Below, one piece after another: positions 35,306 to 45,644 of a DNA stretch of 64,000 nt. The position numbers and the translations under genes are program-made. Numbering within the stretch: the stretch's first letter is position 1; every line of letters starts with the position of its first letter. The stretch comes from Gemmatimonas sp. Lineage in GTDB: Bacteria; Gemmatimonadota; Gemmatimonadetes; Gemmatimonadales; Gemmatimonadaceae. The stretch lies in the NCBI GenBank assembly GCA_965279375.1, contig OZ257156.1, positions 3,584,001 through 3,648,000 of the forward strand, given 5' to 3'. The notes beneath the pieces are model-generated. The model had not been told where the DNA came from. It made no database searches and was given only the letters and a program-made list of their open reading frames with translations.

Positions 35306-35755
35306 ATGAAACGTTCGTGGGCAGCACTGGGTCTGGTGCTCGCTCTCAGCGCTCTCATGCCAAAGGTTTCGGAGGCGCAGGATCTTCGGAAAAAACTCCC
35401 GGGCGTCACGCTCGGCCAGAATTATCCGAACCCCTTCAATCCCGAAACATTCATCCCGTTCAGTGTGGGCGAACCGCCCAGCTGTCCCGATAACGGAAAG
35501 CAGTATCGCGTGACCGTGAAGATCTACAACGTGCTTGCACAGCTTGTAGCGATTCCGGTTCTGCAACGTGGTTCGGGTGGGGTGGCAGGAGGTCAACCGT
35601 TGGAAAACCTCTCAGTCTCATGCGGTGAGTTCACCGCGTATTGGGATGGAAAGGTCCGTGGCACAGGACGGGAGGCCGCCTCAGGCGTGTACCTGTATCG
35701 CATCGAGGTTGATGGCGTGAAGGTGCTGATGGGAAAGATGATCAACGCGAAGTGA
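35306..35755 (+). CDS. Small secreted protein consisting of a single FlgD-Ig / T9SS C-terminal-domain-like module
   Basis: Signal peptide ending SEA-Q; LGQNYPNPFNPET, VKIYNVL.QLV, WDG, ASGVYLYRI. Confidence 0.75.
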   Translation: MKRSWAALGLVLALSALMPKVSEAQDLRKKLPGVTLGQNYPNPFNPETFIPFSVGEPPSCPDNGKQYRVTVKIYNVLAQLVAIPVLQRGSGGVAGGQPLENLSVSCGEFTAYWDGKVRGTGREAASGVYLYRIEVDGVKVLMGKMINAK

Positions 35756-39274: not shown

Positions 39275-39361
39275 GGATAGGTGGCCGAGTGGTTGAAGGC
39301 ACCGGTCTCGAAAACCGGCGTGCCCGCAAGGGTACCGTGAGTTCGAATCTCACCCTGTCCG
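39275..39361 (+). tRNA. tRNA-Ser(CGA)
   Basis: Acceptor GGATAGG/CCTGTCC; anticodon arm CCGGT-CTCGAAA-ACCGG; long variable arm; GTTCGAATC; CCA not encoded. Confidence 0.95.
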
Positions 39362-39475
39362 CTGAGTGTGGTACAGTTCATCCGGTTTGCTTCGGATGAG
39401 GCAAGAACGACGCGCCGGCGTGCGGGTTCCGCGCCCGGCGCGTTTGTGCAGGGTCGGGTGCCGATGGTGCCCGAG

Positions 39476-39563
39476 GGATGGATGGCCGAGTGGTTTAAGG
39501 CGCACGCCTGGAAAGCGTGTGTACGTTAATAGCGTACCGTGAGTTCGAATCTCACTCCATCCG
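39476..39563 (+). tRNA. tRNA-Ser(GGA)
   Basis: Acceptor GGATGGA/TCCATCC; anticodon arm CACGC-CTGGAAA-GCGTG; long variable arm; GTTCGAATC; CCA not encoded. Confidence 0.95.
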
Positions 39564-39565
39564 TC

Positions 39566-39605
39566 ATCCCGTCAACGACTTCGGGCGTTGGCGGGATTGT
39601 TGTTT
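39566..39605 (+). terminator. Rho-independent terminator after the tRNAs
   Basis: Stem ATCCCGTCAACG/CGTTGGCGGGAT with C(TTCG)G loop and TGTTGTTT tail. Confidence 0.7.
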
Positions 39606-39752
39606 GTGGACGCGATTGGCCAAGATTTCTGAATCTCGTCGCGCCGCCAACGCGTTCCAATTGTCGTCGGCACGCGCCTGAGGGCGATCGACGTCCATTC
39701 CGCATCTGGTCTCACGAGTCATCGTCGCAAGTCCGCCTCACCGCGCACGAAC

Positions 39753-40091
39753 ATGGCGTCGTTTGAAGACGAGCTGTCCCTCCAGCAGTACCTGCGCGAC
39801 ATCGAGGCATACCCCGTGCTCTCGCGCGAAGAGGTCGAGGAGTTAGCGCGACGGGTCCGCGCCGGCGACGAAGATGCGATCGAAACACTGGTGCATTCGC
39901 ATCTGCGCTTCGCCGTCTCCGTCGCGCGCGAGTACGAGACCGAGGGCCTCTCGCTCTCGGACCTGATCAACGAGGCGAACCTTGGCCTCATTCGCGCGGC
40001 ACACAAGTTCGACGAGACGAACGGGATCGCGTTCGCGTCGTACGCAGACGCGTTGATTCGTGAGTCCATCCTGCGAGCGCTCCCCGGATAG
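39753..40091 (+). CDS. Sigma70 region 1.2 + region 2-only protein (mini-sigma or pseudogene)
   Basis: LQQYLRDI..YP.LSREE, LRFAVSVA..Y, LSDLINE.NLGLIRAAHKFD; stops at the end of domain 2 with no regions 3 or 4. Confidence 0.75.
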   Translation: MASFEDELSLQQYLRDIEAYPVLSREEVEELARRVRAGDEDAIETLVHSHLRFAVSVAREYETEGLSLSDLINEANLGLIRAAHKFDETNGIAFASYADALIRESILRALPG

Positions 40092-40252
40092 TTGGAAGGA
40101 CGCAGGAGCCGCGTTCCGACGATATCGTGGTGGTGACATGACCCCGAAGTGCTGGGTCGATCGAAACCGCAGTCTACGTGGTGTATCGTGAGAGGGGCCT
40201 GGTATCCGCAAACGGATCCTCGGCCAATCTCTTCGACCACGGTACGACTGTC

Positions 40253-42358
40253 ATGGCCACGCCCACTGCGACACCTGCCACCCCGTTGCGCGTCCTCATG
40301 TGCGCGCCCGATCACTACGACATCGCGTATGTGATCAACCCGTGGATGGAGGGACAGGTTGGGCGAGTCGACCTGAACAAGGCTCGTCAGCAATGGCGCG
40401 CGCTGCACGAGCTCGTCGCGTCGCTGACCACGGTCGAACTGTTGCCGTCGCACCCGGGGCTTCCTGACCTCACCTTCACCGCCAACGCCGGACTCGTCTG
40501 CCAGGGCACGGTGGTACCCGCGTCGTTCCGCGTACCCGAGCGATCCGGCGAAGAACCCATCGGCGTGCAGTGGTTTCAGGATCAGCGGCTGCGTGTGGAG
40601 GAGTTGGGGCCCGACCAGCCGTTCGAAGGCGAAGGTGACGCGCTCTTTCAGCCCGGCGAACCGTTGCTCTGGGCCGCGTACGGCATTCGCTCCAGCATCG
40701 AGTGCCACAGCTGGCTCTCCAGCGTGTTCCGTTGCGAGGTCATCTCGCTTCGCCTGATGGATCCGCGCTTCTATCACCTCGACACGGCCTTCCTGCCGCT
40801 GCCGGGCGGGCGCGTCGTCTACTGGCCTGCCGCGTTCGACGAAGATTCGCTCACGCGCATTCGTCAGCGCATTCCCGCCTCGCATCGCCTCGAGGTGCGC
40901 GAGTACGACGCCCTGCAGTTCGCGTGTACCGCGCTACGCATCGGCACCACGCTCATCGCGCACGCCTGCAGCGCGGAGCTGCAGCAGCGATTGATGCAGT
41001 GGGGATTCGAGGTGCGCACCATCGATCTCAGCGAGTTCGTGTTGGCCGGCGCCGGCGTGAAGAGTCTCGCGCTGCTGCTCGATCAGGACCCCGGGACCGG
41101 ACAGCGGGCTGGGCTCGAGTTCCCGTCGCAGGTGCGAACCACGCGCTTGTCGATGTCGGGGCACATCCTCGACACGGGCAAGCTCAATCGCGTCATATCG
41201 GCTGCTGTCGACGCTGGGTTAGGTTGCCGAGTGGAGAAGTTGGAGGCGGGCGAACGCTTTGATCAGCATTCGCATGCGCAGTTGCGAGTCACGGCGCCCA
41301 CCCAGGAGCGGCTGGATACCACCGTGGCCGAGCTGATCACGCTGGGCGCGGAGCCGATTGCACAGACGCCGCAGGAGGCACACACGCAGGGCGCGCCCAA
41401 GGACGGCGTGGCGCCCGAGGACTTCTATTCGACGACCATCTATCCCACGCGCGTGCTGATCGACGGTGCGTGGTTGCTCGCGAGCGGGCAGCGCATGGAC
41501 GCCATGCTCGTGGTGGATCGCGCTGCACGCACGGTGCGCTGTCGTCTGATGCGCGATCTGCGGGCCGGCGAGGAGATTGTGGTGGGCCACCAGGGCATTC
41601 GCGTGGAGTTGCCGGAACTGAACGCGCACGGCGAAGGGTTCTCGTTCATGAGCGCTGGCGTCTCAAGTGAACGTCGCGTCGAGCACACCGTGGACGAACT
41701 GGCGTGGGAGATCGCGCGCTGCGTCTCGCGCGGCGGCAAGGTGTGCGTCGTGTCGGGCCCCGTGGTCATTCACACGGGCGGCGGTCCCTATCTGCAGCAG
41801 CTCATCGAGCACGGTTTCGTGCACGTGCTGCTGACGGGCAATGCGCTGCCGGTGCACGATATCGAGAGCAGCATGTTCGGCACGTCGCTGGGCGTGGACC
41901 TGTCACGCGGCCGCGGCGTACGCGGCGGACATCGACATCATCTGCGCGCGATCAACCGTGTGCGTATGGCTGGGTCGATTGCCGAGGCGGTGGAGCAGGG
42001 CGTGATTACGAGCGGCATCATGCATTCATGCGTACGGCACGGGGTGCGCTACGTGCTGGCCGGATCGATTCGCGACGACGGTCCGCTCCCTGACACGCTC
42101 ATGGACCTGGTGCAGGCGCAGTCGGCGTACGCGGAGGCGCTGCAAGGGTGCGAGATCGTATTGATGCTCTCCACCATGCTGCATTCGATCGGCGTGGGTA
42201 ACATGACGCCCGCGGGCGTAAAGCTCGTGTGCGTGGACATCAATCCGGCCGTGGTGACCAAGCTGGCCGATCGCGGCAGCATCGAGTCGGTGGGTATCGT
42301 GACCGATGTCGGGCTCTTCATGCGCCTGCTGGCCCAGCGACTCTGCGAGCCATCGTAG
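40253..42358 (+). CDS. ArgZ/AgrE-like fusion: amidinotransferase-fold domain + LOR/SDH (TIGR00300-like, ornithine cyclodeaminase) domains
   Basis: N-term LMC.P.HY...YVINPWM, FTANAG, FEGEGD, YHLDT; C-term FYSTT.YPT, SSERR, LAGSIRDDGPLP, VTKLADRGS; about 700 aa. Confidence 0.85.
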   Translation: MATPTATPATPLRVLMCAPDHYDIAYVINPWMEGQVGRVDLNKARQQWRALHELVASLTTVELLPSHPGLPDLTFTANAGLVCQGTVVPASFRVPERSGEEPIGVQWFQDQRLRVEELGPDQPFEGEGDALFQPGEPLLWAAYGIRSSIECHSWLSSVFRCEVISLRLMDPRFYHLDTAFLPLPGGRVVYWPAAFDEDSLTRIRQRIPASHRLEVREYDALQFACTALRIGTTLIAHACSAELQQRLMQWGFEVRTIDLSEFVLAGAGVKSLALLLDQDPGTGQRAGLEFPSQVRTTRLSMSGHILDTGKLNRVISAAVDAGLGCRVEKLEAGERFDQHSHAQLRVTAPTQERLDTTVAELITLGAEPIAQTPQEAHTQGAPKDGVAPEDFYSTTIYPTRVLIDGAWLLASGQRMDAMLVVDRAARTVRCRLMRDLRAGEEIVVGHQGIRVELPELNAHGEGFSFMSAGVSSERRVEHTVDELAWEIARCVSRGGKVCVVSGPVVIHTGGGPYLQQLIEHGFVHVLLTGNALPVHDIESSMFGTSLGVDLSRGRGVRGGHRHHLRAINRVRMAGSIAEAVEQGVITSGIMHSCVRHGVRYVLAGSIRDDGPLPDTLMDLVQAQSAYAEALQGCEIVLMLSTMLHSIGVGNMTPAGVKLVCVDINPAVVTKLADRGSIESVGIVTDVGLFMRLLAQRLCEPS

Positions 42359-42416
42359 AGGGGCAGGCGGCATACAGCTGGCCCCGCGAACCTCGGTGAC
42401 TGCCAGCTCTGATTCG

Positions 42417-42959
42417 TCAGCGGCTTCGCTCCGCCAGCTCCCGAAGATACTGCGCCGCCTTCGCGCGGTAGTGCGGCGCCGTCGAGTGGATCGTCGCACG
42501 ATGGGCGTCGGTCACATCACCCACTTTTCGCGCCGGGCACCCAGCCCATAGCTCGCCGGCGCGCACCTGCTTTCCGGGCGAGACCACCGCGCCCGCGGCC
42601 ACCAACGCGCCGCTTTCGATGATCGCGTCATCGAGCACGATCGCGCCCATTCCGATCAGCACATCATCGTGGATGATGCAGCCGTGAATGATCGCGCCGT
42701 GGCCGATCGTGACGCGTGAACCCAGCTGCGCATCGCCCCCCGTCCGGCTCGTGTGAATCAGCGCGAGATCCTGCACGTTCGTGTCGTTGCCGATGCGGAT
42801 GCCGCGTTCGTCCCCCCGCAGCACGGCGCCAAACCACACGCTCGAACCGGCGCCGATGTCCACGTCGCCAATCACGACGGCGGTCGGCGCAACGAAGACG
42901 CCCGGCGCCAGACGGGGGTGCTGGTCGCCGAATGGCATGACGTTCACTGGATTCTGCAT
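42417..42959 (-). CDS. Gamma-carbonic anhydrase family (hexapeptide-repeat) protein
   Basis: VIGDV.IG..SSVWFGAVLRGD, NVQD...IH, TIGHGAIIHGC, WAG.PA; GAGG SD before ATG 42959. Confidence 0.9.
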   Translation of the reverse strand: MQNPVNVMPFGDQHPRLAPGVFVAPTAVVIGDVDIGAGSSVWFGAVLRGDERGIRIGNDTNVQDLALIHTSRTGGDAQLGSRVTIGHGAIIHGCIIHDDVLIGMGAIVLDDAIIESGALVAAGAVVSPGKQVRAGELWAGCPARKVGDVTDAHRATIHSTAPHYRAKAAQYLRELAERSR

Positions 42960-43160
42960 CGACACCTCTCGAGTTGCCTCTGGCCAGCTTCCGCGTAGCG
43001 CGCGCCGACGTGATCAGACCATCTCTTCGCCCACACGGCGACTGCGCGCAAATCTATCCCCACGTGCGAACGTTGCGGCCGCTGCCACCGGCCCGCATGT
43101 TCCCGAAGACGCCGCCGGAGAGGCAAGTCCGGCCATGACCAACACTGTGTGCCTGTTCGC

Positions 43161-44381
43161 ATGACCTTCGTAGTTTTCGTCGCGCCGATTTTTTCGCCGG
43201 CCGCGTCCCAGATGATTGAAGCGGCCGCATCGTTGCCGGGAGTGCAGCTGGCGGTCATCGCACAGGAAGCGCTCGAACGCCTCGCGCCGACGATTGCGTC
43301 GCGACTGGTCGGGCACTGGCGCATCGACGACATCACGAGCGCGGCGCACATCGAGGCCGCGGCACGCGAGTTGGCGCAGCGCCACGGCCGCATCGATCGC
43401 CTGTTCGGTGCATTCGAGCAAGCGCAGCTTCCGCTGGCGGTGGTGCGCGAACGACTCGGTATCGAAGGACTGCCGAGCGCGGCGGCCATGAACTTTCGCG
43501 ACAAGTCGCGCATGAAGGACGTGCTGCGCGCGGCCGGTGTGCCGGTCGCGCGCCACCGACTCATTGGTGAACGGGCCGAAGCGCTGTCGTTCGCGCGCGA
43601 GGTCGGATTCCCGATCGTCATCAAGCCACCTGCTGGTGCCGGCGCGATCGCCACACACCGCGTCAACGATGCCGTGTCGCTCGACGCCGTCCTTTCGGCG
43701 TACCCTCCGCACGCCGAACAGCCGATGCTCGCGGAAGAGTTTCTGCGCGGCAGTGAGCACTCGATCGAGACCGTCTCCGTCGGTGGGCGTGCGCTGTGGC
43801 ACTCCATCACGAACTACGCGCCCACGCCGCTGACGGTGATCGAGAATCCATGGATTCAGTGGACGGTGCTGCTGCCGCGCGAAGTGGATGACGCGCGGTT
43901 CGACGACATCCGCGCGGTCGGTGATCGAGCACTGCAGGCACTCGGCATGACGACCGGCGTCTCGCACTGTGAATGGTTCCGTCGCACGGACGGCTCGGTC
44001 GCCATCAGCGAAATCGCTGCCCGTCCGCCGGGCGCGCAGATCACCACCATGATCGCGCGCGCGCACGAGATCGACTTCGTGCGCGCCTGGACGCGCCTCA
44101 TGATTTTCGGCCAGTTCTCCATTCCCGAACGCCGCTACGCGGTCGGCACCGCCTACCTTCGCGGCCAGGGGAAGGGACACGTCGTCGCCGTCGACGGGCT
44201 CGATATCGTCCAGCGCGAAGTGGGCGCCCTCATCTGCGACATGCGGCTGCCAGAGCGCGGACAGCCGCAAAGTGCGTCCTACGAAGGCGAAGGCTTCATC
44301 ATCGTGCGGCACGCCGAGACCAAGGTGGTCGAGCGGGCGCTGCAACTCATTGTTTCCGCGGTTCGCGTGCGCCTCGGCTGA
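43161..44381 (+). CDS. ATP-grasp domain protein (amino-acid/peptide ligase-like)
   Basis: FRDKSRMK, GFPIVIKP..GAG, EEFL.G.E, H.EWF, EIAARPPG. Confidence 0.88.
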   Translation: MTFVVFVAPIFSPAASQMIEAAASLPGVQLAVIAQEALERLAPTIASRLVGHWRIDDITSAAHIEAAARELAQRHGRIDRLFGAFEQAQLPLAVVRERLGIEGLPSAAAMNFRDKSRMKDVLRAAGVPVARHRLIGERAEALSFAREVGFPIVIKPPAGAGAIATHRVNDAVSLDAVLSAYPPHAEQPMLAEEFLRGSEHSIETVSVGGRALWHSITNYAPTPLTVIENPWIQWTVLLPREVDDARFDDIRAVGDRALQALGMTTGVSHCEWFRRTDGSVAISEIAARPPGAQITTMIARAHEIDFVRAWTRLMIFGQFSIPERRYAVGTAYLRGQGKGHVVAVDGLDIVQREVGALICDMRLPERGQPQSASYEGEGFIIVRHAETKVVERALQLIVSAVRVRLG

Positions 44382-44417
44382 GCGCGCATCGTCCAGGTAC
44401 TCCTCACACCATCGCCA

Positions 44418-45644
44418 ATGTCCAAGACCGTCCTCATGCTGACTCCGGGCTACCCCGGGGAAATGCCGCTCTTCACGAAGGGGCTCGCCGAGCATGGCGC
44501 CACGGTGCTCGGTGTGGCGAACGGGCCGGCGCACGAACTGCCCGAGCACGCACGTCGGTATCTGAGCGACTACCTGCAGGTGCCGGATCTGTTCACCAAT
44601 CCGGACTCCGCCATCGTGCAGATCCGGCATTGGCTGCGCGGCCGTACGCTCGATCGTGTCTGCTGCCTCTGGGAGCCGGGCGTCGAGATCGCCGCGCAGA
44701 TCCGCGAAGCACTCGGCGTGCCGGGACAGTCGTATGAGCAATCGCTCAAGTTTCGCAACAAGGACCTCATGAAGCAGGCGCTCGCGGCCGGCGGCGTGCG
44801 GGTGCCGCGCCATGAAGTGGCGCATACGGCGAAGGAGGTCTTTGAGGGCGCGGAAAAGATCGGCTATCCGCTGATCATCAAGCCCATTGCCGGCGCGGGC
44901 TCGATGGACACGTTCCGCTGCGATTCGATCGCCGAAGTCGAGGCCGCTGTCGCGCAACTCGGGCACATCGCGATCGTCGATATCGAAGAGTTCATCGATG
45001 GCGAGGAGTACACGTACGACACGATCTGCGCGAACGGCGAGATCCAGTACTTCCACATCGGCTTCTATCGGCCGCGCCCGCTCATCGCTCGCACGAACGA
45101 GTGGATCAGTCCGCAGACGCTCAGCTACCGCAACGTGGACGATCCCAAGCTGGCCGGTGGGCGCGCCATGGGTGAGCAAGTGCTCAAGGTGCTCGGCTAC
45201 GAGCACGGCTTCACGCACATGGAGTGGTACCGCAAGTCGGACGGCGAAGCGGTGTTTGGCGAAGTGGCGGCGCGCCCGCCCGGAGCGCGCACCGTCGACC
45301 TGATGAACTACGCCAGCGACGTCGATCTCTTCGCCGCCTGGGCCGAGGCTGAGCTGTTCGGCACGTTCACGCCGAAGATCGAGCGCAAGTACAACTGCGC
45401 CTGTATCACGAAACGGGCACACGGGCAGGGTCGCATCCAACGCATCGAGGGGCTCGATCGAGTCCGCGCGTTGGCCGGAGATGCCCTATGCACCGTGGAT
45501 ATGCTGCCCATCGGGAGTCCACGGCGCGACTGGAAGAGCACGCTCCTGTCGGACGGGTACGTGACCCTCCGGCATCCGGACTGGCAGACCACGATCGACC
45601 TCGCCGACTTCGTAGGAACGGAGCTGAACCTCTACGCCAGCTGA
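44418..45644 (+). CDS. ATP-grasp domain protein (paralog of the upstream gene)
   Basis: FRNKDLMK, GYPLIIKPIAGAGS, EEFIDGEE, HMEWY, EVAARPPG. Confidence 0.88.
   Translation: MSKTVLMLTPGYPGEMPLFTKGLAEHGATVLGVANGPAHELPEHARRYLSDYLQVPDLFTNPDSAIVQIRHWLRGRTLDRVCCLWEPGVEIAAQIREALGVPGQSYEQSLKFRNKDLMKQALAAGGVRVPRHEVAHTAKEVFEGAEKIGYPLIIKPIAGAGSMDTFRCDSIAEVEAAVAQLGHIAIVDIEEFIDGEEYTYDTICANGEIQYFHIGFYRPRPLIARTNEWISPQTLSYRNVDDPKLAGGRAMGEQVLKVLGYEHGFTHMEWYRKSDGEAVFGEVAARPPGARTVDLMNYASDVDLFAAWAEAELFGTFTPKIERKYNCACITKRAHGQGRIQRIEGLDRVRALAGDALCTVDMLPIGSPRRDWKSTLLSDGYVTLRHPDWQTTIDLADFVGTELNLYAS

Follow-up and report, generated by a model that had tools for sequence, protein, structure and literature searches.

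The window, the 64,000-nucleotide stretch of DNA analyzed here, contains an intact open reading frame for a 112-residue protein that we call mini-sigma (Table 1). Pfam assigns residues 9 to 40 of the product to Sigma70_r1_2 and residues 46 to 110 to Sigma70_r2 and recognizes no other domain; regions 3 and 4 are missing from the chain, which also falls below every NCBIfam cut-off shown. Sigma region boundaries are those in general use, save where a source is cited. The AlphaFold2 single-sequence model has five helices (pLDDT 69), and its top Foldseek matches are the domain 2 structures of RpoS/SigA (TM, 0.64); by Pfam and this model, regions 1.2 and 2 are present and folded. In the alignment to solved structures, residue 110 corresponds to Escherichia coli sigma70 residue 443, and the stop codon therefore lies at ~446, just past region 2.4. 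Region 2 residues are given below in E. coli numbering where they carry three digits (mini-sigma position + 333). The initial annotation, made from the letters alone, had described an intact 112-residue frame with its sigma-like motifs ending after region 2.4, and this description proved correct. A contig from one sequencing run (X1) spans positions 39483 to 42500 with 0 differences, so the TAG stop codon is not visibly an assembly slip, and X1 may be the window's own source. One small RNA run, which may not contain the organism, gave zero cover over the ORF and therefore has no bearing on expression.

Table 1. Features of the mini-sigma locus (positions in the window)
Feature	Position	Strand	Basis
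tRNA-Ser(CGA), tRNA-Ser(GGA), and terminator-like hairpin (39566-39597), upstream of mini-sigma	39275..39597	+	
Relic of the first 8 codons of the parent sigma gene	39729..39752	+	14/24 bases identical, gapless; p=0.0006 versus random genome 24-mers
Mini-sigma ORF, 112 aa, regions 1.2 + 2.1-2.4 only	39753..40091	+	Translation, Pfam
Region 1.2 (residues 9-40); residues 9, 12, 13, 16, and 17 in the predicted beta-prime interface	39777..39872	+	Pfam, complex model
Acidified 2.1/2.2 loop, residues 59-64 (K393E, Q395E, N396T, Q397E)	39927..39944	+	Orthologue alignment
Conserved core-binding block, residues 67-89; one amino acid change (G408A) and ~8 synonymous differences versus parent	39951..40019	+	Scan p=0.016, omega 0.03, complex model
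Degenerate region 2.3-2.4 (K423N, K426A, I428A, V432D, W433A, W434L, Q437E; F427, S429, and Y430 kept)	40020..40064	+	Orthologue alignment
TAG stop, gapless opposite parent Gln446 CAG (one C>T change)	40089..40091	+	DNA alignment
In-frame tail past the stop, containing RSRVP; possible decayed relic	40092..40136	+	p=0.08
ArgZ-like fused arginine dihydrolase / ornithine cyclodeaminase	40253..42358	+	NF052231, 882 bits, under the 1025 cut-off

The genes at the locus are arranged in the order clpB, tadA, two tRNA-Ser genes, the terminator-like hairpin, mini-sigma, and the ArgZ-like gene, and no consensus promoter was found between the tRNA terminator and mini-sigma. Fused enzymes of the ArgZ type, combining arginine dihydrolase and ornithine cyclodeaminase, are known mainly from cyanobacteria. 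The fused gene is rare here: the matches listed in 300 genomes of the phylum cover the C-terminal half only, except in one genome (G217), where both halves are present in separate frames. The gene past the tRNA-Ser pair differs in each relative (loci L036, L048, and L058), and at L058 an ORF resembling the ATP-grasp gene of the window (43149) follows after one other gene; this variable position and the L058 gene order suggest that mini-sigma and argZ were inserted at a variable site. The ATP-grasp genes themselves form a tandem pair (43149 to 45644, + strand) with no NCBIfam family over its cut-off. Beside clpB, a 149-residue ORF with a signal peptide (35306 to 35755, + strand; no NCBIfam family) contains the motif QNYPNPFNP, which is presumably typical of FlgD-like or T9SS C-terminal domains and which stands alone in this ORF.

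Origin of the mini-sigma gene

Mini-sigma is matched by four sigma factors of its own genome, three RpoD-like proteins of ~290 residues and one that we take to be FliA-like. The three RpoD-like genes (G000:C1:3177274, 2668785, and 2578068) all lack region 1.1, and the genome has 34 Sigma70_r2 matches in total. The best match, here termed the parent (G000:C1:3177274-3178137), shares 67% amino acid and 75% nucleotide identity with mini-sigma over regions 1.2 to 2.4. It is a short RpoD/SigA-type sigma of Gemmatimonadota, 287 residues long and without region 1.1, and is probably the housekeeping (primary) sigma of the genome, as judged from the source names of its homologues and because 122 of 131 genomes of the phylum contain a match. 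The source names of the close mini-sigma homologues likewise point to Gemmatimonadota, and in a 41-row tree mini-sigma nests inside the parent-sigma clade.

The DNA alignment of the two genes is gapless from 24 bases upstream of the mini-sigma ATG, a segment that corresponds to the start of the parent gene. The parent ATG reads AAG at the mini-sigma locus, and the present ATG lies opposite a Lys codon of the parent; thus, the basic N-terminal tail has been dropped, and we infer that the start codon shifted downstream. The isoelectric point of mini-sigma is 4.6, versus 8.9 for the N-terminal part of the parent. Downstream of the stop codon, a remnant of region 3 or 4 was looked for and none was found. 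The initial annotation had pointed to an in-frame RSRVP past the stop as a faint relic of a longer gene; the peptide is present but falls short of significance (in-frame p=0.08; over all frames, p=0.8 and 0.996). Given the upstream relic of the old start, the TAG opposite CAG, and the lack of a downstream remnant, mini-sigma is, on these alignments, a duplicate of the 5' half of the parent gene that was trimmed at both ends.

Kept and altered surfaces

Between residues 10 and 110, mini-sigma differs from the parent at 32 of 101 positions, and most of these positions show little or no variation across 48 distinct orthologue segments. The changes include N383H and those listed in Table 1 for the 2.1/2.2 loop and for region 2.3-2.4, and the seven changed positions of the latter are invariant in 48/48 segments. 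The loss of the WW dyad, Lys, and Gln noted from the sequence was thus confirmed, and the primary-sigma signature formed by W433, W434, and Q437 now reads A, L, and E. These three residues are 100% conserved in 1,002 primary sigmas, where they hold the upstream fork or read position -12 (PMC4593229, Table 3, excerpt). The reported change of AKKY.NRG to AREYETEG stands as an acidification of the loop but not as the loss of an Arg at position 397, since the parent motif reads AKKYQNQG.

The 35 region 2 positions that we treated as the DNA interface were taken from Table 2 of PMC11217687 (excerpt). Their net charge falls from +7 in the parent to 0 in mini-sigma, and five new acidic residues (positions 393, 395, 397, 432, and 437) lie on the DNA path. 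The promoter-melting face has accordingly lost charge and melting residues, as had been proposed, but it is neutralized rather than acidic. The proposed clustering of changes on the DNA-facing side holds for radical changes (10/35 versus 2/34 elsewhere, p=0.013; radical meaning BLOSUM below 0 or charge-lowering, by our own definition) but not for all changes (14/35 versus 8/34, p=0.11). When positions belonging to the core face only were compared with those belonging to the DNA face only, 3/19 versus 14/34 were changed, a borderline difference (p=0.053; radical changes, p=0.11). Among the DNA-interface residues, R385, Y394, R414, K418, F419, S429, Y430, and R436 are unchanged, half of the -11A pocket is retained, and position 441 gains a charge (Q in the parent, R in mini-sigma).

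The core-binding helix is identical to that of the parent but for G408A. Positions D403, 406, E407, and N409 are core-binding sites and F419 and F427 are folding residues (bioRxiv 2020.09.07.285775, excerpt); mini-sigma keeps the parent residues D403, N406, E407, and N409 as well as both phenylalanines, in agreement with the initial annotation that the core-binding face is kept. In comparison with the parent, then, mini-sigma has this helix and is without regions 3 and 4, the basic N-terminal tail, W433, W434, Q437, K423, and K426, and is acidic.

The pairwise comparison with the parent gave a dN of 0.20 and a dS of 0.64. In a codon model of 11 orthologues plus mini-sigma, omega was 0.016 on the background and 0.31 on the mini-sigma branch (p=0.0014 versus 1). 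Split along the gene, the branch value was 0.03 in residues 67 to 89 and 0.44 outside them (p=1e-4; outside versus 1, p=0.02); the boundaries of this block were chosen post hoc, and the scan-corrected p value is 0.016. Neutral evolution was modeled in three simulations, each carried to 32 differences. Between 18% and 30% of the runs stayed stop-free; few of the stop-free runs reached the charge change seen in mini-sigma (-10; p at most 0.006), a mean BLOSUM score this conservative (p at most 0.003), or the same sparing of the hydrophobic core (p 0.03 to 0.05). Gene conversion as the cause of the conserved block was rejected because of the ~8 synonymous differences inside it; at the 20 codons of the predicted interface (see below), there are only 2 synonymous differences from the parent. 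GC3 was also rejected as a test between readings, since a high value (0.82) does not discriminate. With an intact frame and a low omega that is uneven along the gene, mini-sigma does not look like plain decay, judging from these sequence comparisons, and the non-neutral pattern suspected at the outset is borne out. The selection tests average over the whole branch, and the selection may have acted before or after the truncation.

Mini-sigma was also modeled together with residues 214 to 345 of the genome's own beta-prime subunit, without alignments. It is predicted to dock on the beta-prime coiled coil, with a score of 0.72 versus 0.01 for the best control, a contact agreement between runs of at least 94%, and a partner pLDDT of at least 81. 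The mark used for docking is reached by 51 of 78 solved pairs and by 2 of 108 mismatched ones; it also lets through near relatives of genuine partners. Since complexes of this kind have already been solved, the pass may reflect memory of them, and binding by this copy is a model prediction. The predicted interface sets regions 1.2 and 2.1 and residues 69 to 84 of mini-sigma against the coiled coil. Of the comparable interface residues, 17/20 are those of the parent (3/20 changed versus 29/81 elsewhere, p=0.06).

Relatives and distribution

Reads were compared at 80% likeness for 4 of the 23 runs listed. Run X5, from a second study, yielded a 652-base contig over positions 39486 to 40138 with 27 differences and one gap. 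Run X6, from a third study, contains a relative with 298 differences in 2,009 bases of argZ (~85% identical), in which the ArgZ-like gene also follows mini-sigma. Its contigs join the tRNA terminator to 39741-39814, this segment to 39944 onward, and 40034 to 40163; joints at 80% likeness can stem from other organisms, which makes them a lead of moderate weight. From the matching depth, the record coordinates, and a joint, we infer that region 2.3 and the argZ leader lie no more than 128 bases apart in this relative, a distance that would leave no room for regions 3 and 4. At least 4 differences are listed inside the mini-sigma ORF, and those listed are all third-position synonymous; three lie in the mini-specific N terminus, and the remaining one possibly originates from parent genes. 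In the X6 data, two contigs over 39598 to 39908 (depths, 16.7 and 2.8) each connect the tRNA terminator region with the start of mini-sigma, and their unequal depth suggests that two related organisms with the locus are present in X6.

The homologue searches returned 5 proteins among 38 candidates with P0001 as the query and 385 matches with a profile, of which the best 120 were listed. Of 122 proteins examined, 115 have the WW dyad and 7 do not; the latter are mini-sigma, P0005, one protein cut before the motif, and four with scrambled ends. P0005 used as a query found only itself. In a representative library, for which the best 150 matches were listed, none of the 145 new proteins inspected combined V432D with Q437E. 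On these searches P0005 is the only second member, and the family is tiny.

P0005 is a metagenomic singleton of 113 residues on a 706-base contig, and its stop is therefore unverified. It is 54% identical to mini-sigma and 51% identical to the parent. Of the 32 sites changed in mini-sigma, P0005 departs from the parent at 25 as well (p=1e-5) and has the same new residue at 10 of them (2.8 expected, p=0.0002); these include K393E, Q395E, Q397E, G408A, I428A, V432D, and Q437E. Relative to the parent, P0005 differs at 1 of 16 positions in 403 to 418 and at 46 of 85 elsewhere. Mini-sigma and P0005 group together at 99/96 inside the parent clade of the 41-row tree, and P0005 has a long branch and an odd composition. 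The initial annotation had called for homologues of ~110 residues sharing both the truncation and the WW loss; P0005 matches in length, but it keeps W434 (position 433 is Pro), and with an isoelectric point of 6.6 it is not acidic overall.

Mini-sigma was found at 1 of 30 tadA loci, its own, and at 0 of the 29 others. In 86 other genomes of the genus, it was absent from the best 150 of 235 matches listed, five genomes with four matches each having been rechecked. None of 400 family genomes had a copy scoring above the parent gene, and none came from a DNA search that scored two candidates per genome; in both searches, diverged members with scores lower than that of the parent may have escaped. 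In 130 genomes of the phylum, it was absent from 150 of 151 matches listed, and the other frames were all 246 residues or longer. The tallies include ten unpublished genomes as negatives only (G151, G188, G244, G268, G398, G399, G468, G568, G585, and G612). Viral contigs contained no relative of mini-sigma, and all matches in phage records were under 60% identity. Several other candidates were set aside: 23 genome loci from a collection scan are all long frames, one metagenome locus from a further scan is an ordinary full-length sigma, 42 of 43 loci in rechecked genomes with extra matches have WW and the remaining one has WY in a long frame, and ESM Atlas clusters of 112 to 121 residues are indistinguishable from fragments. 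A 74-residue open frame at G072:C139:12041-12187 matches only the first half of the mini-sigma profile.

Candidate function and known sigma-like systems

The reading that we favor, and to which we give about an even chance, is that mini-sigma is a selected, promoter-blind sigma-2 ligand that acts as a plug on the beta-prime clamp helices. A primary-type sigma gene would have been duplicated in one lineage, cut to regions 1.2 and 2, and kept by selection. When expressed, its product would occupy the main sigma site without forming open complexes and would dampen initiation in competition with sigma factors; the alternative sigmas, which bind less strongly, are the likeliest targets. Sigma-2 fragments on their own act as inhibitors through competition for the core enzyme, although no paper on this turned up in the open-access text searched, and NusG-family factors overlap sigma at the same beta-prime site. 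Without regions 3.2 and 4, mini-sigma may also persist on elongating RNA polymerase, where it may exclude sigma-dependent pausing or NusG-family factors from that site. Through the beta-prime coiled coil, region 2 of sigma contacts free core as well as elongation complexes (PMC3326312, excerpt). The plug reading is weakened because a lone sigma-2 domain competes only weakly with full-length sigma (PMC2988020, excerpt on separated gp55/gp33), because R385, Y394, K418, F419, Y430, and R436 are kept and position 441 gained an Arg, because the contrast between core face and DNA face is borderline, because no consensus promoter was found, and because mini-sigma is very rare among the genomes searched.

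The gene could instead be a functionless relic of a full-length paralogue that diverged under selection as an alternative sigma, with the core face kept and the -10 face changed, acquired a nonsense codon at Gln446, and lost its 3' half. The TAG opposite the parent CAG, the absence from nearly all relatives, the variable site behind tRNA genes, and the averaging of the selection tests over any full-length period all fit such a relic. However, the DNA past the stop has decayed beyond significance, yet the 112 upstream codons are free of stops and frameshifts; the ~85% identical (argZ) relative in X6 would also be truncated, and P0005, provided that its stop is genuine, terminates at the same position. 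We consider a relic rather unlikely. Titration of an anti-sigma, a chaperone, or a proteolysis adaptor that grips region 1.2/2.2, in the way that PhyR acts with NepR, is an unlikely role as well. The conserved surface is one that sigma-binding regulators can cover as well. PhyR is an established case of mimicry by a sigma domain that has degenerated, but its degeneration extends to the core-binding regions (PMC8103513, excerpt), whereas in mini-sigma they are kept, and the flanking ORFs read include no gene for an anti-sigma, a kinase, or a receiver.

Two further readings would make mini-sigma a working initiation factor. It might be a sigma-2-only factor with a changed -10 element and perhaps an unknown activator, since T4 gp55, which resembles sigma70 in domain 2 only, still directs initiation (PMC2988020, excerpt). 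Loss of the W dyad alone is not proof of DNA-blindness, because the dyad is not conserved in alternative sigmas (PMC4593229, excerpt) and the FliA-like sigma of this genome is also without WW; moreover, Y394, K418, F419, and Y430 are kept. However, alternative sigmas retain bulky hydrophobic residues at the dyad (PMC4593229, excerpt), whereas position 433 is Ala in mini-sigma and Pro in P0005, and the acidic residues on the DNA path, the neutralized interface, and the missing regions 3.0 and 4 make such a factor very unlikely. The suggestion that mini-sigma is half of a split sigma with its region 3/4 partner elsewhere has a precedent in two-subunit sigmas of the SigO-RsoA type (PMC8103513, excerpt), but it fared worst and is scarcely credible: a tblastn search of the genome with the parent's C-terminal 167 residues matched only the three full-length sigmas and revealed no orphan region 3/4 (a remote partner without likeness would escape), no Sigma70_r4 match lies near the locus, and the job of a sigma-2 half is -10 recognition, the very face that is degraded here.

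On the features tested, mini-sigma falls outside the functional group 1/2 sigmas, SigO-RsoA, PhyR, and gp55. Like gp55, which is sigma70-like in domain 2 only and docks on the beta-prime coiled coil, it is a stand-alone domain 2 protein, but gp55 recognizes promoters and works with gp33 and gp45 (PMC2988020, excerpt), whereas mini-sigma is chromosomal, derives from the host's own sigma, has a degraded DNA face, and lies in a housekeeping neighborhood. Bacillus SigO-RsoA also presents a sigma-2 domain as a separate small protein; however, RsoA has a sigma-4 partner and activates transcription (PMC8103513, excerpt), while no partner half was found for mini-sigma. The sigma fold of PhyR is degenerate, serves as a decoy, and is unable to initiate transcription, but PhyR is ECF-derived, receiver-fused, and degenerate for both promoter and core binding (PMC8103513, excerpt); mini-sigma is stand-alone and of group 1 type in origin, with the core face kept and with tadA, tRNA, and argZ-like genes rather than nepR/ecfG as neighbors. 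Its mode of action would be most like a cross of gp55 (domain 2 on the clamp) and PhyR (a nontranscribing mimic).

With RfaH and other NusG-type factors, whose fold is unrelated, the likeness is one of mode of action only, through the same predicted docking site on the beta-prime clamp helices; RfaH reportedly shares this site with sigma. Sigma factors in bacteria are controlled by anti-sigmas, by proteolysis, and by mimics that soak up anti-sigmas, and a nonproductive sigma competing for the polymerase itself would, if true, be a different control point. No host-encoded sigma-2-only inhibitor was described in the open-access text searched, which is weak evidence. Mini-sigma would represent a natural separation of function in sigma domain 2, with the core face kept and the melting face lost, and its rarity limits its general weight. 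The evolutionary signal appears good from the sequence comparisons, and the function is a proposal only, for a tiny family.

Two Bacteroidota-type proteins, P0124 (300 residues) and P0145 (223 residues), each comprise a tandem pair of sigma 1.2+2 modules and have no region 3/4 recognized by Pfam. These proteins, whose kinship to mini-sigma is only conceivable, suggest that stand-alone sigma-2 modules recur. We tentatively raise the possibility, while doubting it more than we credit it, of a host-encoded stand-alone sigma-2 class that has arisen recurrently from short primary sigmas, in Gemmatimonadota and in Bacteroidota-type organisms, and that would retain the hold on beta-prime, give up promoter melting, and regulate RNA polymerase by plugging the clamp helices against sigmas and NusG-family factors; as proposed, its members would have a single module in mini-sigma and P0005 and tandem modules in P0124 and P0145. 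When relatives of P0124 were sought in 401 genomes of another phylum, without a positive control, none was found at E 1e-48. P0124 is 300 residues long in 3 of 4 cluster members, on contigs of up to 22.7 kb; its first repeat has acidic residues at 423, 426, and 429, and its second carries W434Q and Q437E.
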